A stretch of 64,000 nucleotides of DNA from Candidatus Nomurabacteria bacterium (GTDB lineage Bacteria; Patescibacteriota; Minisyncoccia; Phycocordibacterales; UBA9973). Of this stretch, positions 7,124 through 61,469 are shown one piece after another. A program made the translations under genes and the position numbers. How positions within the stretch are numbered: the stretch's first letter is position 1; the number at the start of each line of letters is the position of its first letter. The stretch spans positions 68,992 through 132,991 of the forward strand of contig CALRAL010000001.1 in the NCBI GenBank assembly GCA_943350875.1. The letters are read 5' to 3'. The notes beneath the pieces were generated by a model. That model had not been told where the DNA came from. It searched no databases and saw only the letters and a program-made list of their open reading frames with translations.

Positions 7124-8521
7124 ATGAAAAATTATAAAGAATTTTTTAAGAGTAAAAAGATAACAGTTATGGGGCTAGGGATTTTAGGACGGGGGCTTGG
7201 ATATACGAGATTCTTAGCAGAATGCGGGGCTGATTTAATTGTGACGGATTTAAAAACAAAAGAACAACTCAAAACTTCAGTACAAGTATTAAAAAAATAT
7301 AAAAATATTAAATTTGTACTTGGGGAGCATCGATTAGAGGATTTTAGAGGTAGAGATATGATTATCAAATCCGCAGGGGTACCTCTTGATTCTATTTATA
7401 TCGCTGAAGCTAAAAAAAATCGAATTCCGATTAAGATGGATGTTTCTTTGTTTGTAAAATGTGCACCGAAAGTGATGTTGATAGGAGCAACAGGCACAAG
7501 GGGGAAATCAATGACAACTGCACTTATTTACGAAATTCTCAAAAAGAATGAGAAATTCTTAAAAAGAAAAATCTATATTGGAGGCAATGTTAGAGGCATA
7601 GCTACTTTGCCCTTATTAAAAAAGGTAAAAAAGAATGATATTTTGGTTTGTGAATTAGATTCTTGGCAATTACAAGGGTTTGGCGATGCGAAAATTTCTC
7701 CGCACATTTCTGTATTTACCAGTTTTATGCCGGATCATATGAATTATTATAAAGGTAGTATGAAAGATTATTTCAACGATAAAGCTAATATTTTCAAATA
7801 CCAAAATGAAAATGATTTTTTAATTGTTCGTCCAGATGTTCAGAAATTAATTCCTAAAAATATAAAGTCAAAGTTAATCGTAGTAAGCAAAAAAGAAGTT
7901 GAAAACTGGAATTTCATAGTACCCGGAGAGCATCAGAAGGAGAATCTGGCTTGTACAGTGGAAATGGCTAAAATCCTTGGTATTCCAATGCAATCTATCA
8001 AAAAAGCGATGGAGAAATTCAAAGGTTTAGAAGGGCGCTTACAACTTTTAAAAATATACAAGGGTATAAAGATTTATAATGACAACAATGCAACTACCCC
8101 AGAAGCAACAGTTGCAGGTATAGAAGCATTAATAACCGCTAGGAAGGACCTAGCGGTAGACCTAGCGGTAAAAAATATTATTTTGATTTGTGGGGGGGCA
8201 GATAAAAATCTTGATTTAGATAATTTTGTAAAAGTTGTGAATAAACGTTGTAAGGCTGTAATAATGATTCCAGGGACAGGGACAGAGAAGCTTATGAGTG
8301 AAAAGTTGAAAGTAGAAAGTTATAAAGTTGAAAGTTTAGAAGAAGCAATTAAAAAATCGTTAGGCCTTGCCTCACGACAGGATACCGTTCTTTTCTCCCC
8401 AGCGTTTGCTTCTTTTGGAATGTTTAATAATGAATATGAAAGGAATGATTTGTTTGTAAAATTAGTGAAGAAATTGCCTGCCCGCAATGCTTACAGCATA
8501 GCTGTTGCAGGCGGGAAATAA
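7124..8521 (+). CDS. murD: UDP-N-acetylmuramoylalanine--D-glutamate ligase MurD
   Basis: N-terminal GLGILGRGLGYTRFLAECGA Rossmann region, GATGTRGKS P-loop, Mur ligase C-domain. The C-terminal tail LPARNAYSIAVAGGK is encoded by a family A repeat. Confidence 0.8.
   Translation: MKNYKEFFKSKKITVMGLGILGRGLGYTRFLAECGADLIVTDLKTKEQLKTSVQVLKKYKNIKFVLGEHRLEDFRGRDMIIKSAGVPLDSIYIAEAKKNRIPIKMDVSLFVKCAPKVMLIGATGTRGKSMTTALIYEILKKNEKFLKRKIYIGGNVRGIATLPLLKKVKKNDILVCELDSWQLQGFGDAKISPHISVFTSFMPDHMNYYKGSMKDYFNDKANIFKYQNENDFLIVRPDVQKLIPKNIKSKLIVVSKKEVENWNFIVPGEHQKENLACTVEMAKILGIPMQSIKKAMEKFKGLEGRLQLLKIYKGIKIYNDNNATTPEATVAGIEALITARKDLAVDLAVKNIILICGGADKNLDLDNFVKVVNKRCKAVIMIPGTGTEKLMSEKLKVESYKVESLEEAIKKSLGLASRQDTVLFSPAFASFGMFNNEYERNDLFVKLVKKLPARNAYSIAVAGGK
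8477..8516 (+). repeat. Family A GC-rich palindromic element forming the C-terminal tail of murD
   Basis: cctgcccgcaatgcttacagcatagctgttgcaggcggga. Confidence 0.8.
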
Positions 8522-9872
8522 AATGCAAAATCTAGATTTATCAAAAATTAAAAAAATATTTTTTGTGGGAATAGGGGGGATAGGTATCTCGGCTATTGCT
8601 AGAATGATGGTATTAGAAGGTAAAGAAGTCATAGGTTCTGATATTACAGAGAATGAAATGACAGATGAACTGAGGGAACTTGGAATAAAAATATTTTTAG
8701 GTCAGAAAATTGAATTGATTCCAAAGGATGCAGATTTGATTGTTTACTCGATAGCTATTCCTAGATATGATCCGAACTTTTTTGAAAAATTGAAGAATTT
8801 AGGTGTGTCAATGTTAACGTATCCACAAATGCTTGGATTGGTGACAAAGGACAAACACACTATTGCAGTATCTGGTACTCATGGGAAGACTACAGTGACA
8901 GCGATGATAGCTAAAATTTTGATTGATACTAGAAAAGATCCATCAGTGATAGTGGGGAGTCTTTTAAAAGATTCAAAATCTAATTTAATTGTCGGTAAGA
9001 GTGAATATTTTGTCGTGGAAGCTTGTGAATATGAGAGATCATTTTTAAATGTAAAACCAAAAATTGCAGTTATTACAAATATTGAGACAGATCATTTGGA
9101 TTATTATAAAGACCTAGCAGATATACAAAATGCTTTTAGTGAATTTATTTCACAGACAAAAGATATGGTTATTTATAATAGTAAAAATATAAACATCAGC
9201 CTACTAGTAGGCGAGTTTAAGGGTAAGCTAGTGGACTATTCAAAATATTTAAACAAAGTGCCAAAGTTATCTGTGCCAGGGGAGCATAACAGGATGAATG
9301 GGGCGGCGGCTTTGGCTGTGGCAGATGTTTTAGGCATAGATGAGGATGATGCCCAAAAATCCCTGGCTGGATTTTTGGGCACTTGGCGCCGTCTGGAGAA
9401 AAAAGGAGAAACAAAAGATGGGACCATTATTTATGACGACTATGCCCATCATCCAACAGAGATAAGGGCAAGTTTACAAGCTTTATGTGAGCTTTACCCT
9501 AAAAATAGTAAAAAGATCACAGTTATCTTTCAGCCACATCTCTACAGCAGGACAAAAGCTCTATTTGATGGTTTCTCAAAAGCTTTCAAAGAGGCAGATC
9601 TTGTTATCCTTTTGCCTATATACTTTGCCAGAGAAAAACTGGATGAAACGGTTTCTAGTGGCAAATTAGCTGAGGTAATATGTAAAAATGGAGACAAAGC
9701 CATAGCTTTTACTGATTTTGAACTAGCTACGGAATACCTAAGGAGTCAGGTTTGGGGTGGAAATGATATTTTTGTGACTATGGGGGCAGGGGAAGCGTAC
9801 AAAATTGCTGATTTATTATTCAAATACAAGCTAGACAAGACAATTTCTGAAACTGCGCCCTCGGGGACATAA
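8505..9872 (+). CDS. murC: UDP-N-acetylmuramate--L-alanine ligase MurC. The start is possibly ATG 8523.
   Basis: FFVGIGGIGISAIARMM...GSD, GTHGKTT, DYAHHPTEI. Confidence 0.85.
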   Translation: MQAGNKMQNLDLSKIKKIFFVGIGGIGISAIARMMVLEGKEVIGSDITENEMTDELRELGIKIFLGQKIELIPKDADLIVYSIAIPRYDPNFFEKLKNLGVSMLTYPQMLGLVTKDKHTIAVSGTHGKTTVTAMIAKILIDTRKDPSVIVGSLLKDSKSNLIVGKSEYFVVEACEYERSFLNVKPKIAVITNIETDHLDYYKDLADIQNAFSEFISQTKDMVIYNSKNINISLLVGEFKGKLVDYSKYLNKVPKLSVPGEHNRMNGAAALAVADVLGIDEDDAQKSLAGFLGTWRRLEKKGETKDGTIIYDDYAHHPTEIRASLQALCELYPKNSKKITVIFQPHLYSRTKALFDGFSKAFKEADLVILLPIYFAREKLDETVSSGKLAEVICKNGDKAIAFTDFELATEYLRSQVWGGNDIFVTMGAGEAYKIADLLFKYKLDKTISETAPSGT

Positions 9873-10039
9873 GGACAGGGGACCCACACGTTTCTTAAAA
9901 TTGTCTTGTCTAGCTTTTCTTACCAACACTCACTAAATTGCTCATATTTATACTATTTTTGTCAATGTTCATATCTTAGAATATCCTTATTTTACAAGCT
10001 ATTTTGTATTTGACAAGGGGTAAAAATGTTGTCTAACTA

Positions 10040-14681: not shown

Positions 14682-17141
14682 ATGGCAAAAAAGAATGAAG
14701 ACATAATAGAAAATGTGCCTACTGGAAGCATTATTCCTGTCGATGTGATTTCTGAAATGAAAGAGTCATATTTGGCGTATGCTATGTCCGTCATCACTTC
14801 TCGTGCCTTGCCAGATGTCAGAGACGGATTAAAGCCAGTGCATAGGAGAATTTTATTTTCTATGAATGAACTTGGACTCACTGCTTCAGCGCGTTTCAGA
14901 AAGTCTGCCTTGGTAGTCGGAGATGTGCTCGGAAAATACCATCCGCATGGCGATACGGCAGTGTACGACTCGATGGTGGGTATGGCGCAGGATTTCTCAT
15001 ATCGTTACCCACTCGTTTTGGGTCAAGGGAACTTTGGTTCTATAGATGGCGACAATGCAGCAGCGATGCGTTATACCGAAGCGAAAATGTCCAAAATTTC
15101 TTCTGAACTTTTGCGTGATTTAGAAAAAGAAACAATTGATTTTCGTCCAAACTATGATCAGACTCGCCGAGAGCCGATAGTTTTCCCTTCGGCTGTGCCT
15201 TCGCTTTTATTAAATGGCACACTTGGTATCGCTGTTGGCATGGCTACAAATATTCCCTCGCACAATCTAGCCGAGGTGATAGACGCTACCAATTATTTAA
15301 TTGAAAATAGTGATGCAACGACTGAAGACCTAATGCAATTCATTAAAGGTCCTGATTTCCCGACTGGAGGAGTGGCATATGGATATAAAGACATGCTTCA
15401 TGCGTATTCTACTGGCCGTGGAGGAGTGGTGTGTCGGGGGGAAGCGGAAATAGTGGAAGAAAAAAACAGTAGTTTCCAAATTATTATTACTTCGATTCCT
15501 TTTCGGGTAAACAAAGCGAATTTGATAATGTCTATCGCAGAATTGGTACAGGAAAAAAAGCTCGAAGGTATCAAAGGTCTGCGAGATGAATCCACAAAAG
15601 ATATTCGTATAGTTATCGACTTGAAAAACGGCGCTTTTCCTGAAAAAGTTTTAAACTATATTTATAAAAATACTCAACTTGAATCCAATTTTAATTTTAA
15701 TATCGTGGCCTTGGTGGATGGGGTGCCACAGACTCTTTCTTTAAAATCCATCCTTTCAGAATTTATTTCTCACCGCAAAGAAGTGGTCCGTCGTAGGTCA
15801 GAATATGATTTAAGAAAAGCAGAGGAACGTGAACATATTTTACTTGGGCTTAAGAAAGCGCTTGATAAGATTGATCGTGTTATCACTGTCATTCGTGCTT
15901 CCAAAGATGCACAATTGGCTAAAGCTAACTTAATGAAAGAATTTAAGTTTTCAGATTTGCAGGCATCTGCTATTTTAGAGATGAAGTTACAAAAGCTCGC
16001 AGGTCTCGAAAGGAAACAAGTGGAAAATGAACTTGAAGAAAGACAAAATTTTATCAAAGAAATAAAAGAACTTTTAGCTAGTCCTAAAAAGATGCTTGGA
16101 GTTATATCTGCTGAACTAAAAGAAATTAGAGAAAAGTACAAAGACGATAGAAGGACCAAGATAGTCAAAGGTGGAGTAAAAGAAATTTCTGACGAAGATT
16201 TAATTCCAGAAAAGGAAGCGATGCTCGTATTCACCGCCGGCGGATATGTGAAGCTCACTGATCCATCAGAATATCATGCGCAAAAGCGTGGTGGGGTGGG
16301 GGTAGTGGATCTAGAAACAAAAGAAGAGGATTTTGTAACGATGCTAGTAGCTGGATCTACGCATGATGATGTGCTTTTCTTTACGAATCTGGGTAAAGCG
16401 TACCAGATAAAAATGTTTGATATACCAGAGGGTAGGCGTGCTACAAAAGGAAAATCTATTATGAACTTTTTGTCTCTGGCCGGAGACGAAAAGGTGACTT
16501 CTATTTTGCCAATACCAAAAGAATTTAAGAAAGCTCCTGTGTCGCTGATGTTGGTGACTAAAAATGGTACAGCAAAAAAGATGTCCAGTGTTAGTTTTGA
16601 AGATGTACGTAGGAGCGGAATCATCGCTATAAAGCTCGATAAAGGAGATGAGCTCATTTCAGCCCTTTTGACCGACAAAGGTGATGAGGTCATGTTAGCG
16701 ACTGCAGGGGGGCAATCCATACGCTTTAAAGAGTCAGATATTAGGGAAATGGGTAGAACAGCTGGTGGAGTGAGGGGTATAAAACTGGCTAAAAGTGATG
16801 AAGTTATCAGTGTAGATGTTGTTCGAAAAGATAAAAAAGACGGATCATTCTTAACCATGAGTGCGAATGGATTTGGTAAGAAAACACCCTTAAAAGAGTA
16901 TAAAGTGCAGAAAAGAGGTGGTTCTGGAATCAAAACTGCCAAAGTGACCCCTAAAACAGGCAAATTAATCGTGGCCAAAGTGCTTACCGGCGAGGAAGAA
17001 GAATTGATTGCTATGTCTAAAAAGGGACAAGTCATCCGCACCGCTTTGAAAGAAATATCTTCTCTCGGCCGTCAAACTCAAGGTGTGACAGTCATGCGTC
17101 TCCGTGCTGGCGACGGCATAGCATCTATCGCCTGCGCGTAG
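14682..17141 (+). CDS. gyrA: DNA gyrase subunit A
   Basis: [26 protein letters not shown], catalytic Tyr region, and C-terminal beta-pinwheel repeats. Confidence 0.93.
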
Positions 17142-17147
17142 TATAAA

Positions 17148-17170
17148 ATGTCAAAGACCGTCTTTGACAT
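17148..17170. repeat. Left terminal hairpin palindrome of the IS200-like unit
   Basis: 11-bp arms with a 1-nt centre; the tnpA stop codon lies inside it. Confidence 0.8.
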
Positions 17171-17798
17171 CAAAAATTAGTGTTTCTTTTATGAAACTTT
17201 CTTGATCTCCAAAAGTCGATAATAATAGTTCTTTATTTATTATCGATAAATTTCTGTTATTAGCGAAATCATCATAACTATTCCACAAATGATCTGATGG
17301 ATGTTTTACAATTTTATCTTTTACTGGATTCATGTGTATATAAGTCGATGTCCACATTAATTGTGGATTATTTTCTATTAATACAGATTTGAATTTATCT
17401 TGGAATATGTGCCCAACTCGTTTGTATTTTTTATTTATATATTTTACATAACTTGTGCAAAGTTTTGAAATCAATTTTGAAACGGATATATCTCCAACTT
17501 GTTCAATAAGTAGATGAAAGTGATTAGGCATGAGACAGAAAGCATGCAGTTTAAAATTGTTTTTATTTGTTTCAGTAATCCTAATTCTAGAGTAGGGCAT
17601 TGAAGTTATTTTTTCTTTATTTAGTTCTTCTTCTGTAAATCCTAGACATAATCCAAGTCTAAAGAGAAAAGCTTTGTAATCTTGCTCGTCAAGAAATATT
17701 TTTTCCTTATTATTGCCTCTATTATAAACATGAAAAATATGTCCGGAGGCAAATTTTTTGTAATCTCTGTTATTTATAGATACAGTATAGCATGTCAA
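17151..17798 (-). CDS. IS200/IS605-family Y1 (HUH) transposase TnpA / REP-associated tyrosine transposase-like
   Basis: SGHIFHVYNRGNNKEKIF N-terminal motif, HUH motif LMPNHFHLL, and C-terminal catalytic-Tyr block YIHMNPVKDKIV...W.SY. Confidence 0.8.
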   Translation of the reverse strand: MTCYTVSINNRDYKKFASGHIFHVYNRGNNKEKIFLDEQDYKAFLFRLGLCLGFTEEELNKEKITSMPYSRIRITETNKNNFKLHAFCLMPNHFHLLIEQVGDISVSKLISKLCTSYVKYINKKYKRVGHIFQDKFKSVLIENNPQLMWTSTYIHMNPVKDKIVKHPSDHLWNSYDDFANNRNLSIINKELLLSTFGDQESFIKETLIFDVKDGL

Positions 17799-17814
17799 AG
17801 ACGGTCTTTGACAT
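17792..17814. repeat. Right terminal hairpin palindrome of the IS200-like unit
   Basis: Reverse complement of the left copy; it overlaps the tnpA start codon. Confidence 0.8.
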
Positions 17815-20704: not shown

Positions 20705-20782
20705 ACCCCACCTGGCCTCCCCTTGTCAGGGGAGGAAAAATAGGTAGTCCCCCTGACAAGGGGGATTTAGGGGGTTAGATTT
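20705..20782. repeat. GC-rich nested-hairpin element, family C, intergenic
   Basis: ctccccttgtcaggggag ... tccccctgacaaggggga ... ttagggggttag; a second copy at 36786-36858 is ~85% identical. Confidence 0.8.
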
Positions 20783-26255: not shown

Positions 26256-27449
26256 ATGGAAAAATCAAAGAAAATATACTTAGATTATGCCTCTGGAGTA
26301 TCTCCTAATCCGAGTTCTATACATACCTTGGGTGTTAGTTCAAAAAGCAAGTTAGAGAATGCGCGCAAAATTGTGGCCAATTCTTTAGAGGCTAGACCAT
26401 TGGAAATAATCTTTACCAGCGGAGGGACTGAAAGCAACAACTTGGCCATACAAGGAATTGTCGGGGAAAGGACAGACCTTAAGAATTCAAAAAGGTCTGT
26501 CCTTAAGGAGACAATTCCACATATCATAACTACAAACATAGAACATGCTTCTGTTTTAGAAACATTTAAGATGTTAGAAAAAAGAAAATTAGCTCAAATG
26601 ACGATAGTACCAGTCGAGCAAAATGGGATAGTAGATCCAAAAAAAATCAAAAAAGCTATCAAGAAAAATACCATTTTAATTTCTGTCATGTATGCGAACA
26701 ATGAAATAGGTACAATCCAGCCAATAAAAGAAATTGCAAAAGAAATCAGGCATTTTAAAAAAATGAACAGGCAAGACCTGTTAAATTTTCCATTTTTCCA
26801 TACTGATGCAGTGCAGGCTGTAAATTATTTAGATATAAATGTAGAAAAGCTAGGAGTGGATTTGTTATCTATCTCTGGTTCAAAAATAGAAGGAGCCGCG
26901 CCAAAGGACGGGCAAGCTGGTAGAGTAGGGGTGCTTTATAAAAGAAAAAATGTGCCACTTGCACCTATTTTCTATGGAGGAGATCAAGAAAGTGGGTTAC
27001 GTCCTGGAACAGAGCATTTATCAGAGATTATTAAATTTGTTCAAGCTTTTGAATTCTCACAAAAAATAAAAGAAAAAGAAAACAAAAGATTAACAAAATT
27101 GCGAGATTATTTTATTGAAAAATTATTAAGTTTAAATTTTAAAATTAAATTAAATGGTAATTTAGGAAAAAGATTGCCAAATAACATAAATATTACAATT
27201 CCAAATATACCAAGTGATTTGTTAGTGATAGAACTTTCAGCTAGGGGTGTTATGGCTAGCGCAAAAAGTGCTTGTAAGTCTGGTGATGGGAAAGGTTCTC
27301 ATGTTATAAAAGCTATTGATAATAGTATAAAAGAAACAGACGGTTCCCTAAGGTTTTCATTTGGTAGAGCTACAAGTAAAGCCGATATTGACTACACTCT
27401 AAGGACTTTATCTAAAATTTTGACTAAACTGAAAAGGTGGTATAATTAG
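26256..27449 (+). CDS. Class V aminotransferase / cysteine-desulfurase-like (IscS/NifS family), with insertion near the PLP-lysine loop
   Basis: IYLDYASG...FTSGGTESNNLAIQGI...LLSISGSKIEG. Confidence 0.6.
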   Translation: MEKSKKIYLDYASGVSPNPSSIHTLGVSSKSKLENARKIVANSLEARPLEIIFTSGGTESNNLAIQGIVGERTDLKNSKRSVLKETIPHIITTNIEHASVLETFKMLEKRKLAQMTIVPVEQNGIVDPKKIKKAIKKNTILISVMYANNEIGTIQPIKEIAKEIRHFKKMNRQDLLNFPFFHTDAVQAVNYLDINVEKLGVDLLSISGSKIEGAAPKDGQAGRVGVLYKRKNVPLAPIFYGGDQESGLRPGTEHLSEIIKFVQAFEFSQKIKEKENKRLTKLRDYFIEKLLSLNFKIKLNGNLGKRLPNNINITIPNIPSDLLVIELSARGVMASAKSACKSGDGKGSHVIKAIDNSIKETDGSLRFSFGRATSKADIDYTLRTLSKILTKLKRWYN

Positions 27450-38252: not shown

Positions 38253-39146
38253 ATGGAAGGATTTTTCTCATCTAAAAACAGTTTCTTGTATATACTTGGT
38301 ATTTTGTTTTTCTTGTTGATTTTTAACTCTTTATTTTTTAATGCTCCAAGATATTTCCCAATAGGGGATATTGTAAATATACAAGAAGGTTCAAGTCTCC
38401 ACCGTATTTCTAAATATCTAAAAGACGAGAAGATAATTGGTTCTAGAATGGCTTTTGAAGCTTTTGTGATTATGTTTGGGGGGGAGAAACATATAGTTCT
38501 AGGAGACTATTTATTTGAAAAGAAAATGCCTGTTTTTGATATAGCTTCGCGTCTTACACATGGATATCACAACTTAGCACCAGTCAAAGTGACTATCCCT
38601 GAGGGTTCAAATAACAAAGAAATAGCTGATATTTTTGGCACTAAATTGTTAAAATTCAATAAAATTAAATTTTTGACTGAGATAAAAGATAAAGAGGGCT
38701 ATCTTTTTCCCGATACTTACTTTTTTTCTACTACAGACACAGAAAAAGAAGTTATAAAAGTTATGAAGGATAATTTTAATAAAAAAGTTCCTCTTGTTTT
38801 TTCTACAATAAACATTAGTGATGTAAAGAAAAAAGATATCATAATAATGGCCTCGATAATAGAACGTGAAGCGGAAGGCGATAATGACAGAGCTATAATT
38901 TCTGGAATTCTTTGGAAAAGATTTAAAAAAGGGATGTTGTTACAAGTAGATGCTGTACCCGAGACATATAAAACAAAAGGATTACCAAAAAATCCTATAT
39001 CTAACCCTGGGCTCGAAGCCATAGAAGCGTCTATTCATCCAAAAGTCTCATCTTATTTTTTCTACTTACATGATAAAGCTGGTGTAGCTCATTATGCTGT
39101 CACTTTTAATGAACATGTTTCAAATAAATTAAAATACTTAAAATGA
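38253..39146 (+). CDS. mltG: Endolytic murein transglycosylase MltG (YceG-like)
   Basis: N-terminal TM; LLQVDAVPETYKTKGLPKNPISNPGLEAIEASIHP. Confidence 0.75.
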   Translation: MEGFFSSKNSFLYILGILFFLLIFNSLFFNAPRYFPIGDIVNIQEGSSLHRISKYLKDEKIIGSRMAFEAFVIMFGGEKHIVLGDYLFEKKMPVFDIASRLTHGYHNLAPVKVTIPEGSNNKEIADIFGTKLLKFNKIKFLTEIKDKEGYLFPDTYFFSTTDTEKEVIKVMKDNFNKKVPLVFSTINISDVKKKDIIIMASIIEREAEGDNDRAIISGILWKRFKKGMLLQVDAVPETYKTKGLPKNPISNPGLEAIEASIHPKVSSYFFYLHDKAGVAHYAVTFNEHVSNKLKYLK

Positions 39147-40342
39147 AAATAAAAAAAACTGTTTTTGTGGGGATGTCAGGGGGAGTAGATAGTGCTGTGT
39201 CAGCAACTTTACTTAAAGAACAAGGGTATGATGTAGTGGGTGTTTTCATCCGTACTTGGCATCCAGAATTTTTAAAATGCAATGAAGAAGAGGAGAGGCT
39301 AGATGCTATGCGTGTGGCAGCATTTTTAGATATTCCTTTTTTGACTTTTGATTTTGAGAAAGTGTACAAGAAAGAAGTGGCTGATTATATGATTTCTGAA
39401 TATAAGGCTGGTAGGACTCCGAATCCAGATGTGATGTGCAACAAAGAAGTGAAATTCGGCGCATTTCTCAAAAAAGTTGTTTCGATGGGTGCGGATTATG
39501 TGGCGACTGGGCATTATGCACAAACCAATAAATACACAGGGTTCCCCTGTGTTACACAGGGGAACCCTGTGTATTTAAACCTCGGGAAGCTCAAAATAGA
39601 AAGGGAAAACTTTGGTTTGTTAAAAGGAAATGATGTTACAAAAGATCAGAGTTATTTTCTTTGGATTTTAAAACAAGAACAATTAAAAAAGATTTTGTTT
39701 CCAGTTGGACATTTAAAGAAAACAGAAGTTCGTAAATTAGCCAAGAAATTAAATTTACCTGTGGCAGAGAAAAAGGATAGTCAAGGGATTTGTTTTTTGG
39801 GAGCTATTGATTTGAAAGAATTTTTAAAACATTACATAAAAGAAAAAAAAGGTGAGGTATCTAATACAGAAGGTGAGAAGATTGGATTTCATGACGGGGT
39901 AGTTTTTAATACTTTAGGAGAAAGACATGGTTTTACTATTACCAAGAAAAGTCCTAATGATGGGCCTTATTATGTAGTAGGTAAAGACTTAAAGAAGAAT
40001 ATTTTATACGTGAGTCAAGACAAAAACCATCTTGCAAAGAGTACGGATATTTTTTTACTAAAAAATTCCTCGTGCTCACGCCAGTCGCTCTCGCAAGTCT
40101 CTTTGCAAGATGGTTTTTGTCTTTGTTTAAGAGGCACTAATTGGATTTCAAAGATCCCAGAATTAAATAAAGATTACACTGCACAGATTCGTTATCATGG
40201 TAGTTTCTTACCTTGTAGAATAAAAGTTCTAAAAGGCGACAAAGCTGAGATTCACTTTAAAGAAAATGTGTTAGTTGCCCCTGGTCAGTCTTGTGTAGTT
40301 TATGATAAAGATGTTGTTCTTGGGGGAGGAATAGTTGTATAA
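39143..40342 (+). CDS. mnmA: tRNA 2-thiouridylase MnmA (contains an in-frame palindromic insert)
   Basis: VFVGMSGGVDSAVSA PP-loop, GHYAQ, KDQSYFL. Confidence 0.88.
   Translation: MKIKKTVFVGMSGGVDSAVSATLLKEQGYDVVGVFIRTWHPEFLKCNEEEERLDAMRVAAFLDIPFLTFDFEKVYKKEVADYMISEYKAGRTPNPDVMCNKEVKFGAFLKKVVSMGADYVATGHYAQTNKYTGFPCVTQGNPVYLNLGKLKIERENFGLLKGNDVTKDQSYFLWILKQEQLKKILFPVGHLKKTEVRKLAKKLNLPVAEKKDSQGICFLGAIDLKEFLKHYIKEKKGEVSNTEGEKIGFHDGVVFNTLGERHGFTITKKSPNDGPYYVVGKDLKKNILYVSQDKNHLAKSTDIFLLKNSSCSRQSLSQVSLQDGFCLCLRGTNWISKIPELNKDYTAQIRYHGSFLPCRIKVLKGDKAEIHFKENVLVAPGQSCVVYDKDVVLGGGIVV
39533..39575 (+). repeat. 43-nt near-perfect palindrome, family B, in frame inside mnmA. It encodes YTGFPCVTQGNPVY.
   Basis: ATACACAGGGTTCCCCTGTGT-T-ACACAGGGGAACCCTGTGTAT. 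Confidence 0.85.
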
Positions 40343-40823
40343 TATGCCCATGTCTACATTTTTTATTGAAAATAGTGAGCTTATTACTAGGTTAGCAGTA
40401 GCATTATTACTTGGTGCATTAATAGGGGCTGAAAGGCTTTTTGTGCACAAAGAAGCGGGAATGAAAACCCATGCATTAGTGTCACTTGGGGCGGCTGTTT
40501 TTGTTATCATCTCTGAACAAATGGCACAGAAATACATTGGTCTAGTCGGCTTTAATCCTACGATGATGGCCTCACAGGTGATAGTGGGTATTGGTTTTAT
40601 TGGTGCAGGAGTGATAATTTTCCGAGAGCAAGAGTCGAGACTTATGGGGCTCACTACTGCCTCAGGGCTTTGGGTAGCAGCTGGTATAGGTATGGCTTCA
40701 GGACTTGGATTTTTTAATTTGGCTGTAATCACTACTGTTTTGGTGTTGATTATTTTAGTAGCGATGAATTTATTGGAAAAGCCTATTAGGAAAATTTCTG
40801 AAAATGGAGATAAAAAATATTAA
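40335..40823 (+). CDS. MgtC/SapB-family membrane protein
   Basis: LAVALLLGALIGAERLFVHKEAGMKTHALVSLGAAVFVIIS. Confidence 0.7.
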   Translation: MYNMPMSTFFIENSELITRLAVALLLGALIGAERLFVHKEAGMKTHALVSLGAAVFVIISEQMAQKYIGLVGFNPTMMASQVIVGIGFIGAGVIIFREQESRLMGLTTASGLWVAAGIGMASGLGFFNLAVITTVLVLIILVAMNLLEKPIRKISENGDKKY

Positions 40824-44409: not shown

Positions 44410-45810
44410 ATGCCTGATACAGACATCAAAAATACAGAGGCACAAACTCTCTATAATCAAGAAATATATAAATATGGACGAGAGCTTGCTTCTGTCAACA
44501 AGACACTTACTCTTTTACGAGAGTTGTACAAAATAACTCTGCTTTCACTTGATCCTGTTGCGGTAGCGACACAAGTTTCAATATTAATGCGCGATAGCCT
44601 ACATCTTGAAATGGTGGGACTTTTTCTTTTTACTCACAAAGAAGACACATTTTTGCCGCTTGCTTTCGCAAAATCTGATCGTTTAATTTCAGTTTTACGT
44701 AAACTTGATTTTTTGTTTAGTGATATAACAATTACAGGGGTTACAAAACGTTCTTTTTTCAACAGTCTTTTTGAAGGAGAGTTTGTGGTCACAAGAAATA
44801 TTTCTGATATTTGGGGCGGGCTTGTAAATGATAATGATTTAAAAACTATTACAGAATCAGCCAATTTAAAAACAACTATATTATATCCATTACTTACAGA
44901 AGAAAAAATTATTGGTGTGATCCTTTTGAACTATAATTCGTCTTATGATCAGATTTCCGCATCTGAAAAGGATTCTTTAAAATCCTTTTCAGATGCTATA
45001 GCTGTTTCACTTGATAAGTCATATATGTACAAAGAGCTTACGATGGCCAATAAAAATCTGATGGCTGTCAACAAAGAAATGGAATTAGCCAATAAACAAT
45101 TAAAAACAGTTGACGAAACAAAATCTAGTATTTTGTCTTTCGCTCAACATTATTTACAGAATCCAATAGAAAATATTGTTATGGCATCTTCTATGCTTGC
45201 TGATGGATCATTTGGAGATAAAATTGAAGATATAAAAAAGGCTTCGGTACGAATGTTTGAATCTGCCAGGCATTTATCTCTGACAGTAAAAATGTGGTTG
45301 AAAGCCCTTGATTTCGAAGAAAATAGAGTCGAATACAAAATAGCAGATTTAGATTTATATAACCTAATATCTCAAATAGTAAAAGATTGGACTTTAATTG
45401 CGAATGATAGAGGTATTGCTTTTTCCTTTGAGACTGATAATCATCCACCATATACTATCAAAGCAGATCAAACATGGATACATGATGTAATAATAAACTT
45501 AATAGATAATGCTTTTAAAATGACTGAAAAAGGATTTATTAAGTTAAAATTAGAGAAAATTGGTATTGAAAAAGTAAGGTTTTCAATTACTGATTCAGGA
45601 GTGGGTATCGATATGGAAACATTATCAAAACTATTCCAGAAATTTGAACGTGGACATGAGGGTTGGCGAAACAATGTTGAAGGCACAGGATTAGGATTAT
45701 ATATTTCTAAGAAGATTGTGGAAGAAGGCCATCATGGCAAAATCTGGGCAGAATCTGAGGGGCATGGCAAAGGAGCCACTTTTTATGTTGAGCTTCCAAT
45801 TGTGTTATAA
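44410..45810 (+). CDS. Cytoplasmic GAF-domain sensor histidine kinase; no response regulator adjacent
   Basis: HATPase_c: GTGLGLYISKKIVEEGHHGKIWAESEGHGKGATFYVELP. Confidence 0.8.
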   Translation: MPDTDIKNTEAQTLYNQEIYKYGRELASVNKTLTLLRELYKITLLSLDPVAVATQVSILMRDSLHLEMVGLFLFTHKEDTFLPLAFAKSDRLISVLRKLDFLFSDITITGVTKRSFFNSLFEGEFVVTRNISDIWGGLVNDNDLKTITESANLKTTILYPLLTEEKIIGVILLNYNSSYDQISASEKDSLKSFSDAIAVSLDKSYMYKELTMANKNLMAVNKEMELANKQLKTVDETKSSILSFAQHYLQNPIENIVMASSMLADGSFGDKIEDIKKASVRMFESARHLSLTVKMWLKALDFEENRVEYKIADLDLYNLISQIVKDWTLIANDRGIAFSFETDNHPPYTIKADQTWIHDVIINLIDNAFKMTEKGFIKLKLEKIGIEKVRFSITDSGVGIDMETLSKLFQKFERGHEGWRNNVEGTGLGLYISKKIVEEGHHGKIWAESEGHGKGATFYVELPIVL

Positions 45811-53238: not shown

Positions 53239-54922
53239 AACTTGTCAAAACTGTAAAAAAGATTTCACAATAGAACCTGATGATTTTTCATTTTATGAAA
53301 AAATAAAAGTCCCTCCACCGACTTTTTGTCCAGAATGTAGATTTCAACGTAGGTATGCTTGGAGAAATGAAATTACACTCTATCGAAGACCATGTGATTT
53401 GTGTGGAAAAAGTTCTGTTACAATTTACTCTCCAAAAAAATCTTATAAAGTATATTGTCCTAATTGTTGGTGGGGGGATGGATGGGATGCGAAGGAATCT
53501 TTTCAAGATTTTGACTTTTCACGTCCGTTTTTTGAACAATTTCAAGAACTTCAATTTAAAATTCCAAGAATAGCTCTTTTAACCAAAAATAGTGTTAATT
53601 CAGAATACACTAATCATTCAGGGGATAATAAAAATTGTTATATGTGTGTTTCTACTTTTTATTCTGAAAATATAATGTACTCAAATAATATTTGGGAAAA
53701 AGGGCAGGATTTATGTGATTGTACAATGGTGATAAAAAATGGAGTTTTGTCTTACGAATGTATAGATTCTTCTGATATTTATAATTGTCAGTTTTGTATA
53801 CTTTTAAAAAATTGTACTGATTGTTTTTATTGCTATGACTTGCATAATTGTCAAAATTGTTTTTTATCTTTTAATTTAAGAAACAAAAATTATATGATTT
53901 TAAATCAACAATATTCTAAAGAAGAATATTTTAAGAAAATTAAAAATTTTAATCTAAATTCCAATAATTCAAGACAAAATCTTTATAAGCAATTTTTAGA
54001 TTTAATGAAAAATAAAGCATTGCATAAATTTGCTATTATTGAGAAATCGGTAAATTCTTTTGGAAATATGCTTTATAATTCAAAAAACGCTAATCAGGTT
54101 TTTGACTCAGACCATGTAGAAGATACCAAATACGGCATAATACTACCTGGTGTCCAAAATTCGATGGATGTTTGCCATGTTGGTTTTAATTGTGAACTTA
54201 CCTATGAAAGTCATGCTATTGTAAGATCATCTCGTGTTTTATTTTCTCATTTATCCTATGATAATAATGATATTCAGTATTGTGATTCGTGTCATTATAG
54301 TGATAATTTGTTTGGTTGTTGTGGAATAAAGAAAGGAAGTTATATGATTTTTAATAAAAAATATTCCAAAGAAGAATATCTAAAGTTAAAAGAAAAAATA
54401 ATTGAACACATGAAAAGAACAGGAGAGTATGGAAATTTCTTTCCACCCAAACTTTCACCATTTGGCTACAATGAAAGCCAAGCTCAAGTTTATTTACCAA
54501 TGGCAAAAGAAAAAGCTTTATCTTTTGGTTTTAATTGGGAAGATGATATGCCCGGAACCCACGGAAAAGAAACTACGGATTCAAAAAATATATCGGATAA
54601 TATTTTTGAAGTTTTAGATTCCATAACTAATGAAATATTAAAATGTGAAGATTGTGGTAAAAATTACAATATAATTCTAGCAGAATTACAATTTTATAAA
54701 AATGAAAATATTCCTATTCCACATTTTTGTTACAAATGTCGTTATAAAAAAAGAATAGCATTAAGATTACCAAGAAAACTTTGGCACAGGTCTTGTATGT
54801 GTGATAAAATTGGTCATTTTCATGGAGATGATAAATGCAATGTAGAATTTGAGACGAGTTATGCTCCAGAAAGGCCAGAAATAGTGTATTGTGAAAAATG
54901 TTATCAGCAAGAGATTTATTAA
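53207..54922 (+). CDS. Large Cys-rich protein with tandem zinc-ribbon pairs at both termini (paralog 2 of 3); the start probably lies at ATG 53213-53219 and overlaps the grpE stop
   Basis: CQNCKKDFTIEPDDFSFYEKIKVPPPTFCPECRFQRR...LYRRPCDLC...VYCPNCWWGDGWD. C-terminus CEDC...FYKNENIPIPHFCYKCR...YAPERPEIVYCEKCYQQEIY. Confidence 0.8.
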   Translation: MFMNIMNKENKTCQNCKKDFTIEPDDFSFYEKIKVPPPTFCPECRFQRRYAWRNEITLYRRPCDLCGKSSVTIYSPKKSYKVYCPNCWWGDGWDAKESFQDFDFSRPFFEQFQELQFKIPRIALLTKNSVNSEYTNHSGDNKNCYMCVSTFYSENIMYSNNIWEKGQDLCDCTMVIKNGVLSYECIDSSDIYNCQFCILLKNCTDCFYCYDLHNCQNCFLSFNLRNKNYMILNQQYSKEEYFKKIKNFNLNSNNSRQNLYKQFLDLMKNKALHKFAIIEKSVNSFGNMLYNSKNANQVFDSDHVEDTKYGIILPGVQNSMDVCHVGFNCELTYESHAIVRSSRVLFSHLSYDNNDIQYCDSCHYSDNLFGCCGIKKGSYMIFNKKYSKEEYLKLKEKIIEHMKRTGEYGNFFPPKLSPFGYNESQAQVYLPMAKEKALSFGFNWEDDMPGTHGKETTDSKNISDNIFEVLDSITNEILKCEDCGKNYNIILAELQFYKNENIPIPHFCYKCRYKKRIALRLPRKLWHRSCMCDKIGHFHGDDKCNVEFETSYAPERPEIVYCEKCYQQEIY

Positions 54923-55882: not shown

Positions 55883-55937
55883 ACCCTATCGCTCGCGAGC
55901 GATAGGGTTGACATACTTACATCCTATCATATATACT
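55883..55937 (+). promoter_or_regulatory. dnaK promoter with a perfect 26-bp palindrome overlapping the -35 box
   Basis: ACCCTATCGCTCGCGAGCGATAGGGT then TTGACA-17-TATATA. Confidence 0.5.
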
Positions 55938-59744: not shown

Positions 59745-61469
59745 ATGCAATCTGAGCCTAGAGTTTGTCAAAATTGTAAAAAAGAATTCACAATCGAATC
59801 AGACGATTTTGGATTTTATGAGAAAATAAAAGTTCCTCCACCGACTTTTTGTCCAAATTGTAGAGCTCAACGTCGAAATGCTTGGAGGAATACTTTTACT
59901 TTATATTCTCGAAAATGTGATTTGTGTGCAAAATCAGTCATTTCTCTTTATGCTCCAGATTCTGAAATAATAGTTTATTGTAATAAATGTTGGTGGAGTG
60001 ATAAGTGGGATCCAAAATCTTATGCTCAAGATTATGACTTTTCTAAACCATTTTTTGCGCAATTTATAGATTTTGTTAAAAAAGTTCCACACATTTCAGT
60101 AGTCAATGATAACGGGATTGCTAGTTTGAACTGTGAATATACCCATGATTGGTGGTTTTCAAAGAACTGCTATATGGCATTTTCTGGCTGGTATGTGGAG
60201 AATGTTATGTATAGTTATTTTATAACTGCTGGTAGAAATATTATGGATACTATGATCAATATGGCTGAATCAGAATACTTATATGAATGTATAAATTGTT
60301 CGCATGGTTATAATGTTAAATATTCACAATATGCTGGAGCTTGTATTGATTCTCAATTTCTTTATGATTGTCGAGACTGCTCAAATTGTTTTATGTCTTT
60401 TGGACTTAGAAATAAAAAATATTTTTTTAAAAATCAGCAATATACGAAAGGAGAGTATGAAAAAATATTAAATAGTTATAAACTTGAAACTTTTTCTGGT
60501 GTAAAAAAAGCGCAAGAAGAATTTGATAAACTCATTTTAAATTATCCTCGTAGGTATGCTTGGCATAAACAAAATAAAGATTGTTCTGGTGATGTGATTT
60601 CTTATAGCAAAAATACTAAAAACTGTTTCATTGCTAAAAGATGTGAGAATTGTAGATATTCAGAATATCCCACTAAGGACAAGGATTGTTATGATATAAC
60701 GATGACTGGTGAAACATCTGAATGTTATGAAGGAGTTGTTGTGGATCATTCGCAGTTAAACTTTTTTGGAATTTTCTCTGTTAAAAGTCAGGATATAAGA
60801 TATACGCAACATTGTCACTTTTCAAAACATCTTTTTGGTTGTGTTGCGCTTCGTAGTAATAGTTATTGTATTTTCAATAAGCAATATACAAAAGAAGAAT
60901 ATGATACTTTAGTAAGAAAAATTATTGAGCAAATGAATGAAATGCCTTATGTGGATAAAAATGGTTGTGAATATCGTTATGGGGAATTTTATCCAATTGA
61001 ACTTTCTTTGTTTGGATATAATGAAACTCTTGCATGTGAACAGATTCTACTTTCAAAGGAAGAAGCTCTAAATAAAGGTTATAAGTGGCAAGACAATTTA
61101 CAACGAACAACTAAGAAAGAGACATTATTACCACAAAATATTCCAGATTCAATTAAAGATATTAGTGATAATGTCATACAAGAAATACTTAGTTGTGTTG
61201 AATGTAAAAGGAATTATAAAATTGTTCAAAATGAATTAATTTTTTATAAAAAAATGCAGATTTCTATTCCAAGGAAATGTTTTTATTGTCGTCATGCAAA
61301 TAGAATAAAACACACAAATCCTTTTAAACTTTGGCATCGATCTTGCATGTGCGACAAAACAAATCATGGGCATGAAGGAAATTGTCTAAACGAATTTGAA
61401 ACAAGCTATGCTCCAGAAAGACCTGAGATAGTTTATTGTGAAAAATGTTATCAGCAAGAGATTTATTAG
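59745..61469 (+). CDS. Large Cys-rich protein with tandem zinc-ribbon pairs at both termini (paralog 3 of 3)
   Basis: CQNCKKEFTIESDDFGFYEKIKVPPPTFCPNCRAQRR...LYSRKCDLC...VYCNKCWWSDKWDP. C-terminus CVECKRNYKIVQNELIFYKKMQISIPRKCFYCR...YAPERPEIVYCEKCYQQEIY. Confidence 0.8.
   Translation: MQSEPRVCQNCKKEFTIESDDFGFYEKIKVPPPTFCPNCRAQRRNAWRNTFTLYSRKCDLCAKSVISLYAPDSEIIVYCNKCWWSDKWDPKSYAQDYDFSKPFFAQFIDFVKKVPHISVVNDNGIASLNCEYTHDWWFSKNCYMAFSGWYVENVMYSYFITAGRNIMDTMINMAESEYLYECINCSHGYNVKYSQYAGACIDSQFLYDCRDCSNCFMSFGLRNKKYFFKNQQYTKGEYEKILNSYKLETFSGVKKAQEEFDKLILNYPRRYAWHKQNKDCSGDVISYSKNTKNCFIAKRCENCRYSEYPTKDKDCYDITMTGETSECYEGVVVDHSQLNFFGIFSVKSQDIRYTQHCHFSKHLFGCVALRSNSYCIFNKQYTKEEYDTLVRKIIEQMNEMPYVDKNGCEYRYGEFYPIELSLFGYNETLACEQILLSKEEALNKGYKWQDNLQRTTKKETLLPQNIPDSIKDISDNVIQEILSCVECKRNYKIVQNELIFYKKMQISIPRKCFYCRHANRIKHTNPFKLWHRSCMCDKTNHGHEGNCLNEFETSYAPERPEIVYCEKCYQQEIY

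Follow-up and report, generated by a model that had tools for sequence, protein, structure and literature searches.

An in-frame palindrome in mnmA of a Nomurabacteria genome: a probable REPIN-like doublet from a Patescibacteria hairpin family associated with RAYT-type transposases

In a 64,000-nucleotide stretch of a Candidatus Nomurabacteria contig (CALRAL010000001.1, positions 68,992 to 132,991; this whole stretch is the window referred to below), the gene mnmA, encoding tRNA 2-thiouridine synthase, carries a perfect palindrome within its coding sequence (Table 1). The identity of the host gene is clear: its open reading frame (ORF) matches PF03054, PF20259 and PF20258, the product aligns to solved MnmA structures with E = 1.8e-85, and the protein is conserved throughout apart from its inserts. 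The nearest MnmA proteins are 64-79% identical, and the host is a Nomurabacteria-like member of the Patescibacteria, or Candidate Phyla Radiation (CPR). The palindrome encodes the peptide YTGFPCVTQGNPVY (residues 131-144), which stands between the blocks GHYAQ and KDQSYFL. An in-frame palindromic insertion between these two blocks had been noted in a first-pass annotation of the sequence, and the ORF, the Pfam matches and the translation all agree with that description.

The same annotation gave the palindrome 21-nt arms and called it near-perfect. Its position stands, but an inverted-repeat search finds it both longer and perfect: the arms (39529-39552 / 39554-39577) are 24 nt each and 100% complementary, with a single T between them at 39553. 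Together with a second inverted repeat in mnmA, at 40017-40123, it is jointly the longest short-range inverted repeat of the window. Each arm is itself a small hairpin, and the palindrome consists of two inverted copies of one 19-nt unit, ACACAGGG-loop-CCCTGTGT, with the loop TTC in the first copy and GAA in the second. Because the units lie 20 nt apart, the two copies are read in two different frames. Each unit is rich in G+C relative to its surroundings, as first reported (11/19, or 58%, vs 33% across the surrounding 2 kb). The predicted fold of the palindrome as DNA has an energy of -26.9 kcal/mol (z = -11.2; 0/200 shuffles as good) and that of the RNA in its context -50 kcal/mol (z = -6.9). 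When the 17-mer CACAGGGGAACCCTGTG is searched for with <=3 mismatches, mnmA is its sole locus in the window, with 4 strand-wise matches against 0.04 expected and 0/100 shuffles equalling this number. A permissive-threshold Rfam scan of 39000-40400 returned only generic hairpin (miRNA-model) matches far under the cut-offs. In another assembly record (ENA ERZ27280321), a 52.6-kb contig shares 21.2 kb at 100% identity, palindrome included.

The palindromic segment is missing from related proteins, as the first-pass annotation had anticipated: hairpin-encoded peptides occur in 0 of the 120 closest MnmA orthologues and in no solved MnmA structure, and what had been named as grounds for refutation, the same segment in orthologous MnmA proteins, thus did not turn up. 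An alignment of 31 MnmA orthologues contains two hypervariable sites. Site 1, where the palindrome lies, is bounded by GHYA and L.KG.D.SKDQSYFL; some orthologues leave it empty (P0005, for instance, reads GHYAQIKNNNLLKG), and most fill it with unrelated segments of 20-60 aa. Locus L090 has the empty site 1 at the DNA level (GHYAQIKNNNLLKG). HMMER alignments to the structures 9hlv and 2hma break at the insert, where query residues 128 to 157 stand against chain residues 134 to 142, and alignments to solved structures break a second time at query residues 296 to 340. In an AlphaFold2 model of low quality (mean predicted local distance difference test score, pLDDT, 61.7), both insert segments are unconfident stretches between beta-strands; for the first, pLDDT is <50 over residues 125-178 and the flanking strands are at 127-131 and 156-160. 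The palindrome is an insertion in this lineage, absent from relatives, and not ancestral. Judging from these alignments and the model, it would occupy a turn linking two beta-strands, one that solved MnmA structures show to be short, and presumably a tolerant, permissive surface segment.

The insert had been described as free-standing, with a length of 43 nt or 14 aa. That it is an insertion is borne out, but its size is not. The extra material is composite, consisting of outer arms (ACAAACCAA / TTGGTTTGT), the doublet at 39529-39577, and, from 39580, what is left of an older element, its right half (CCTCGGGAAGCTCAAAAT...). The doublet stands in for the left half of this older element, and therefore the gene has gained ~26 residues relative to the empty site of L090, not 14. 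The core CCTCGGGAAGCTCAAAAT is identical in the mnmA inserts of loci L088 and L089, where site 1 holds a ~90-nt palindromic element with a conserved core (...GGGACCCTCGGGAAGCTCAAAAT...) and outer arms that are lineage-specific yet self-complementary. The comparison of these sequences suggests that, in an older palindromic insert of ~95 nt, the left half gave way to the doublet of ACACAGGG hairpins and its TAAAT/ATTTA flanks.

The 18-mer CCTCGGGAAGCTCAAAAT is the core of a far more abundant ~95-nt element found in >50 low-GC (CPR-like) metagenome contigs. A metagenome scan with this 18-mer gave at least 120 matches and more, with ~55 clear copies among the matches listed (loci L094-L209); 28 of these 55 lie in the middle of an ORF, in either orientation. 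The core of the element is nearly invariant (CTTCC-AATTTT-TCGTCCCTGCGCCCTTCCCCTGAGTACAGGGGTGGGAC-CCTCGGGAAGCTC-AAAAT-TGAAAG), and the outer arms are copy-specific and Watson-Crick complementary within each copy. Across the arms, 94.9% of cells are paired vs <=65.6% with the partner columns slid, and there are 190 double-change cells vs 55 in shuffles, a number that 0/500 shuffles reach. G.U intermediates are almost absent. As the covariation is Watson-Crick only, with hardly any G.U, the arm sequences point to a templated process at the level of DNA by which the arms were made or are kept. Five loci with the ~95-nt element had zero matches in Rfam.

Using the hairpin itself as a query, we find a family of elements in Patescibacteria. 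An exact-pattern scan for ACACAGGGNNNCCCTGTGT across 185,579 species genomes (one per species, 596 Gb) gave 87 loci, a total near the chance estimate of ~139 (596 Gb / 4^16). The hosts of 45 of these loci are named Patescibacteria (Saccharibacteria, Nomura-, Zambryski-, Lloyd- and Adlerbacteria, and Paceibacterota) and 3 more are low-GC bins that look alike; there are often several copies per genome, and several contigs of a single metagenome-assembled genome carry hairpin copies. The CPR loci, 348 kb in all, hold 57 perfect copies, 9 of them beyond the scan loci, and ~10 copies with one mismatch, vs <=2 occurrences for any other 8-bp stem. The loop is TTC/GAA, TAA/TTA or TAG/CTA in 50 of the 57 CPR copies, and these copies share the flank consensus AAAWT...AWTTT, with the first flank position paired in 82%. 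The 39 non-CPR hits, by comparison, have 32 different loops and no flank pattern. Doublets like that of mnmA occur at three other loci (L012, L045 and L065). A scan of IMG/VR with the hairpin pattern gave 0 matches, and hence no sign of carriage by phage.

Insertion in frame is not peculiar to mnmA. The hairpin lies mid-ORF, with >100 open codons on either side, in ten ORFs, in all three frames and on both strands (Table 1). At the sites in ribosomal protein L3 and MiaA that are shared by two loci each, the hairpin is 95-100% identical and the 150-nt flanks are 61-73% identical.

The hairpin is also associated with a transposase gene. At L018, L013 and L082, two hairpins ~710 bp apart surround one ORF of ~225 aa; at these and four further loci (L027, L081, L005 and L028) the start codon has one hairpin 20-35 nt upstream, and the stop codon has another at or after it. 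By tblastn, transposase homologues lie beside the hairpin in L018, L027, L082, L081, L005 and L013 (64-79% identical) and in L028 (42%), and the 64-79% identity holds between Saccharibacteria and Nomurabacteria/Parcubacteria. The bracketed ORF is a Y1_Tnp protein (PF01797, 34-40 bits vs a cut-off of 23) whose best NCBIfam match is NF047646, the REP-associated tyrosine transposase (RAYT; REP, repetitive extragenic palindrome), with E = 4e-11. In an alignment of 27 members, the HUH histidines H83/H85 and Y143-I-H-x-N147 (the Y-I-H-x-N-P tyrosine motif) are invariant. The top solved-structure match of the family profile is the E. coli transposase TnpA-REP (4ER8), in an alignment that covers the HUH motif and the YIxxNP tyrosine; a phmmer search of PDB with one transposase sequence returned nothing relevant, and 4ER8 was reached by the family profile alone. 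The JGI annotation of some homologues reads 'REP element-mobilizing transposase RayT'. Diverged homologues come with diverged hairpins: ATACAGAGG-TTTAA-CCTATGTAT at L126, ACGGAAGC... at L160/L167, and another at L032.

Transposase and dispersed hairpins are found in the same genomes. For instance, JBBUIR01 has the transposase (L018) and the in-frame TrmD doublet (L045), CAYGDR01 has the transposase (L005), the in-frame MiaA copy (L085) and further copies (L035, L073, L079), and PFRK01 has the transposase (L082) and a hairpin copy (L052). As side observations, a tatD-like gene (MxPKYIDIHSH...) directly follows the RAYT-like gene and its two hairpins in L018, L027, L081, L082 and L126, and L083 retains a C-terminal remnant of a RAYT-like gene with one hairpin.

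A hairpin on both sides of a Y1 transposase gene is the arrangement called a REPtron, and therefore we read the mnmA palindrome as a REP doublet resembling a REPIN, the inverted doublet of REP/REPIN-RAYT systems (defined in PMC3337134, PMC6006769). Based on these data, we consider it likely that the palindrome is a head-to-head doublet of a Patescibacteria REP hairpin, T-ACACAGGG-(TTC/GAA)-CCCTGTGT-A, that is linked to a RAYT-type transposase and sits in frame in a permissive turn of mnmA. As in the REP/REPIN-RAYT systems of Proteobacteria, the hairpin is short, G+C-rich and dispersed, it lies on both sides of a single HUH/Y1 gene, and different transposase lineages carry different hairpins. 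As in a REPIN, two units are inverted relative to each other, here with a 1-nt spacer, and together make one long hairpin of 23-24 bp. Unlike Proteobacteria REPs, the unit is just 19-21 nt long, its loop has 3 nt, and the host belongs to the Patescibacteria; unlike typical extragenic REPs, this copy lies inside mnmA and many others are likewise intragenic.

Intragenic in-frame REPs with GTAG/CGTC and the palindromic elements of Rickettsia (RPEs) are documented, and dimers encoding 20-30 aa make up over half of them (Di Nocera et al. 2013, PMC3733652). The hairpins described here resemble these as palindromes placed in frame within functional, conserved genes, frequently dimeric and then lengthening the protein by 20-30 residues. 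Further shared features are the reduced genomes of host-dependent bacteria and the presence of tRNA and translation genes among the targets. They differ in phylum and presumably in sequence family, in size (49 nt for the doublet vs 100-150 nt for RPE-1), and in that a candidate transposase is here identified by its flanking hairpin copies. Derivatives of IS200/IS605 (palindrome-associated transposable elements or PATEs, TnpA-Y1) are similar in having transposases of the PF01797 superfamily that act on hairpins in single-stranded DNA; the CPR element, unlike these, is a bare hairpin, with no left and right ends like those of an insertion sequence and no tnpB.

Several observations weigh against a RAYT-linked doublet. 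The bracketed transposases score below the NCBIfam equivalog cut-off for RAYT (43 vs 80 bits), and the match to 4ER8 is weak (E = 0.035), marginally ahead of that to ISDra2 TnpA (E = 0.086), whose alignment is to the HUH region only. In classical REPs the foot of the hairpin is tagged by a guide tetranucleotide, GTAG or CGTC (PMC6006769, PMC3733652); the stem foot of the CPR hairpin lacks both and has the A/T-rich flanks AAAWT...AWTTT instead. In 74 kb of this genome (the window and 9.6 kb beyond it, out of a 235-kb contig) there is only one ACACAGGG hairpin locus, the cognate (~70%-type) transposase was not seen, and the sole RAYT-like gene is a 35% paralogue with a different hairpin. At the mnmA doublet neither a target-site duplication nor a defined target was identified. 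Finally, an empty-site allele of this strain was not found (a metagenome scan with the adjacent core gave the copies of other genomes), so the insertion event is deduced from orthologues at <=79% identity.

The paralogue just mentioned forms a REPtron-like unit of its own (17148-17814; Table 1). Its ORF matches PF01797 with 45 bits (cut-off 23) and is 35% identical to the transposases bracketed by ACACAGGG hairpins. No further copies of its hairpin, ATGTCAAAGAC-S-GTCTTTGACAT, were found in the window or in any retrieved locus. The unit directly follows a large ORF at 14682-17141, gyrA-like by sequence.

Local template switching, in which a hairpin already on the site was copied inverted by snap-back synthesis, or in which 'correction' made a quasi-palindrome perfect, would give a similar structure with no transposase at all. 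Quasi-palindrome mutations of this kind create or perfect inverted repeats and could explain both the inverted duplication and the matched arms: S-L-S' has S-L'-S' as its reverse complement, precisely as in the TTC/GAA pair observed. At another place in mnmA, a perfect 25-nt arm repeats upstream sequence as its reverse complement and orthologues diverge yet keep their arms complementary, and the arms of the larger CPR element covary by Watson-Crick pairs only. However, template switching covers only the doubling step and leaves unexplained an identical 19-mer across many genomes: the unit is the same at >=45 Patescibacteria loci and brackets RAYT-like genes, which is impossible by chance local synthesis. 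As an account of the whole palindrome we consider it unlikely.

Somewhat less probable again is that the palindrome is a selected cis-acting element of mnmA, such as an attenuator, a protein-binding site, an antisense terminator or a site of processing by RNase III or otherwise. A very stable hairpin is predicted for the mRNA, a terminator-like pattern is met on the antisense strand, many intergenic members of the family have A-run/T-run flanks like those of bidirectional terminators or follow tRNA genes, and orthologous in-frame sites keep the hairpin better (95-100%) than its flanks (61-73%). Nevertheless, the doublet is missing from all 120 closest MnmA orthologues and therefore is not a conserved feature of mnmA regulation, it has no Rfam family match, and members of the hairpin family lie in unrelated genes, on either strand and in each of the three frames. 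A sense-strand intrinsic terminator was considered separately and rejected, since there is no T-run and the terminator-like call is on the antisense strand only.

A third possibility is that ACACAGGG is a word resembling a DNA uptake sequence (DUS), enriched by biased uptake and recombination in naturally competent bacteria and often paired into hairpins by chance. Enrichment in one phylum would fit such a word, and the DUS of Neisseria often forms inverted pairs that act as terminators. The repeated unit, however, is a hairpin tied to a transposase gene. With hairpins masked, just 14 single ACACAGGG/CCCTGTGT words are left in 348 kb, ~9 of which are degenerate hairpins or repeat fragments, and the window has 0 unpaired words; we regard this explanation as very improbable. 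An artefact of assembly or amplification, that is, a fold-back chimera, for which a perfect palindrome with a 1-nt centre would be a typical junction, is scarcely credible given that the insert is in frame with no host sequence duplicated, that a second assembly record is identical, and that dozens of independent genomes contain this 19-nt unit and doublets of a similar kind.

Returning to the REPIN-like doublet, we propose the following sequence of events. As has been proposed for REP/REPIN-RAYT systems, a RAYT-type HUH/Y1 enzyme would most likely recognize the hairpin in single-stranded DNA (ACACAGGGTTCCCCTGTGT) and move or copy it. The doublet, formed by two insertions or by inverted duplication, may then have arrived in mnmA at a turn that most relatives fill with other palindromic inserts, where it would have taken the place of the left half of the older ~95-nt element. 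We suggest that the insert persists because the frame is kept, no stop codon is introduced and the surface segment is permissive. The composite insert would be translated as ~26 extra residues, including YTGFPCVTQGNPVY, and is probably a passenger with no role in the chemistry of MnmA.

Table 1. Coordinates of the mnmA palindrome, its parts and related features (positions in the window unless a locus is named)
Feature	Position	Strand	Remarks
Host gene mnmA (tRNA 2-thiouridine synthase), 399 aa	39143-40342	+	Frame open through the insert
Whole perfect palindrome, REPIN-like doublet	39529-39577	.	24-nt arms including the TAAAT/ATTTA flanks usual for the hairpin family; 1-nt centre at 39553
REP-type hairpin unit 1, ACACAGGG-TTC-CCCTGTGT	39534-39552	.	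Reads (Y)TGFPCV in the mnmA frame; identical 19-mer at many Patescibacteria loci
REP-type hairpin unit 2, inverted copy, ACACAGGG-GAA-CCCTGTGT	39554-39572	.	Reads TQGNPV(Y); same 19-mer flanks RAYT-like genes in L013, L027, L082 and L005
Left outer arm, ACAAACCAA	39520-39528	.	Pairs with 39612-39620 in minimum free energy and centroid folds
Right outer arm, TTGGTTTGT	39612-39620	.	Pairs with 39520-39528 in predicted folds
Surviving right half of older, larger palindromic element	39580-39611	+	Core CCTCGGGAAGCTCAAAAT, then AGAAAGGGAAAAC
Second, unrelated in-frame palindromic insert in mnmA	40017-40123	.	Perfect 25-nt arms 40017-40041 / 40099-40123 (AAGACAAAAACCATCTTGCAAAGAG and its complement); 57-nt G+C-rich spacer
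REPtron-like unit of the window, other family	17148-17814	-	Y1 transposase ORF 17151-17798(-); hairpins ATGTCAAAGAC-S-GTCTTTGACAT at 17148-17170 and 17792-17814
In-frame hairpin, ribosomal protein L3	L001:794-812, L075:4778-4796		Same site in both
In-frame hairpin, MiaA	L024:2600-2618, L085:7572-7590		Same site in both
In-frame hairpin, TrmD	L045		Doublet
In-frame hairpin, MurD-like ligases	L012, L065		Doublets
In-frame hairpin, class I aminoacyl-tRNA synthetase	L054		
In-frame hairpin, Pif1-like helicase	L053		
In-frame hairpin, transketolase	L003		
Example copies of the ~95-nt element	L095:10305-10435, L098:8401-8531, L134:6256-6386		

The window contains a number of other palindromes. The first-pass annotation had set the mnmA palindrome apart as a sequence family of its own, and this assignment holds: no local alignment with the elements at the murC end, in IscS, at mnmA site 2 or at 20719 reaches a score of 22, and the only comparison that does is that of mnmA site 1 with the L088/L089 inserts. 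The idea of a single family for all window palindromes (murC end, IscS, both mnmA sites and 20719) was rejected on the same scores. The annotation had also pointed to a half-site after the murC stop at 9875-9891. This sequence (GACAGGGGACCCACACG) lies at 9874-9890, differs from the 17-mer by >3 mismatches, and has no self-complementarity and no hairpin, and we discard it as a relative of the palindrome.

The second insert in mnmA, at 40017-40123, encodes ...KSTDIFLLKNSSCSRQSLSQVSLQDGFCLCL; it is common to most orthologues, with the variant SSRLAPSRSVAS in others, and is absent in P0069 and P0112. Its arms diverge between orthologues yet stay complementary. The element at 9828-9916 is a perfect inverted repeat of 19 bp (AAGCTAGACAAGACAATTT and its complement) around a 51-nt G+C-rich spacer that holds the stop codon of the MurC-like ORF 8505-9872, together with the supposed half-site, and the C-terminus of the protein therefore runs into the element. 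An imperfect palindrome with 27-nt arms (26454-26518) is an in-frame part of the class V aminotransferase (IscS/NifS-like) ORF 26256-27449 and encodes GIVGERTDLKNSKRSVLKETIP. Short perfect in-frame hairpins are also found in a MurD-like ORF, 7124-8521 (8135-8169, 9-bp stems), in the MurC-like ORF (9350-9381, 13-bp stem) and in a HATPase_c protein (44959-44996, 16-bp stem, GCATCTGAAAAGGATT/AATCCTTTTCAGATGC).

Two G+C-rich intergenic elements were noted as well. That at 20719-20763 consists of the hairpins CCCCT-TGTC-AGGGG and CCCCT-GACA-AGGGG, whose loops are flipped, a design in which two hairpins equal one palindrome as in the mnmA doublet; the other, at 55883-55908, is a perfect 26-nt palindrome (ACCCTATCGCTCGCGAGCGATAGGGT). 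Two ORFs with no Pfam match, 566 and 574 aa long, carry at their 3' ends the copies of a 77-nt direct repeat (54845-54921 and 61392-61468, ~6.5 kb apart and 91% identical), and this region runs on into TraG/TrwB-like, EcoRI-methylase, HNH and PemK genes.

Intragenic palindromic repeats that lie in frame are already known as a kind. In the literature that we searched, no paper found linked REP, RAYT, REPIN or RPE-like in-frame palindromes to CPR/Patescibacteria. As a wider and more tentative reading, which we think possible though somewhat less likely to be right than wrong, CPR bacteria may carry an undescribed set of hairpin elements that settle routinely in frame in essential genes. This set would comprise tag-less REPs with their own RAYT-like transposases and the larger ~95-nt element, with its invariant core and copy-specific arms made or kept complementary by templating at the DNA level, and the mnmA site would be a snapshot of one element overwriting another. 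If this is true, such elements would steadily supply proteomes that are otherwise minimal with new peptide segments at protein surfaces.

Nearly all work on REP/REPIN-RAYT systems has been done in Proteobacteria, and most of that on in-frame palindromic repeats in Rickettsia. The ultra-small, host-dependent bacteria of the CPR can now be added with families of their own and a candidate transposase, and the hairpins of these families reside in genes for ribosomal proteins, tRNA modification, aminoacyl-tRNA synthetases and the cell wall. Some of the differences in length among CPR orthologues, those of MnmA at any rate, find a simple explanation in such insertions, which also call for caution from annotators and structure predictors, as segments within CPR proteins can be non-homologous. 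Patescibacteria/CPR now include genetically tractable members (PMC10633639), and the function of RAYTs becomes testable in a new phylum.

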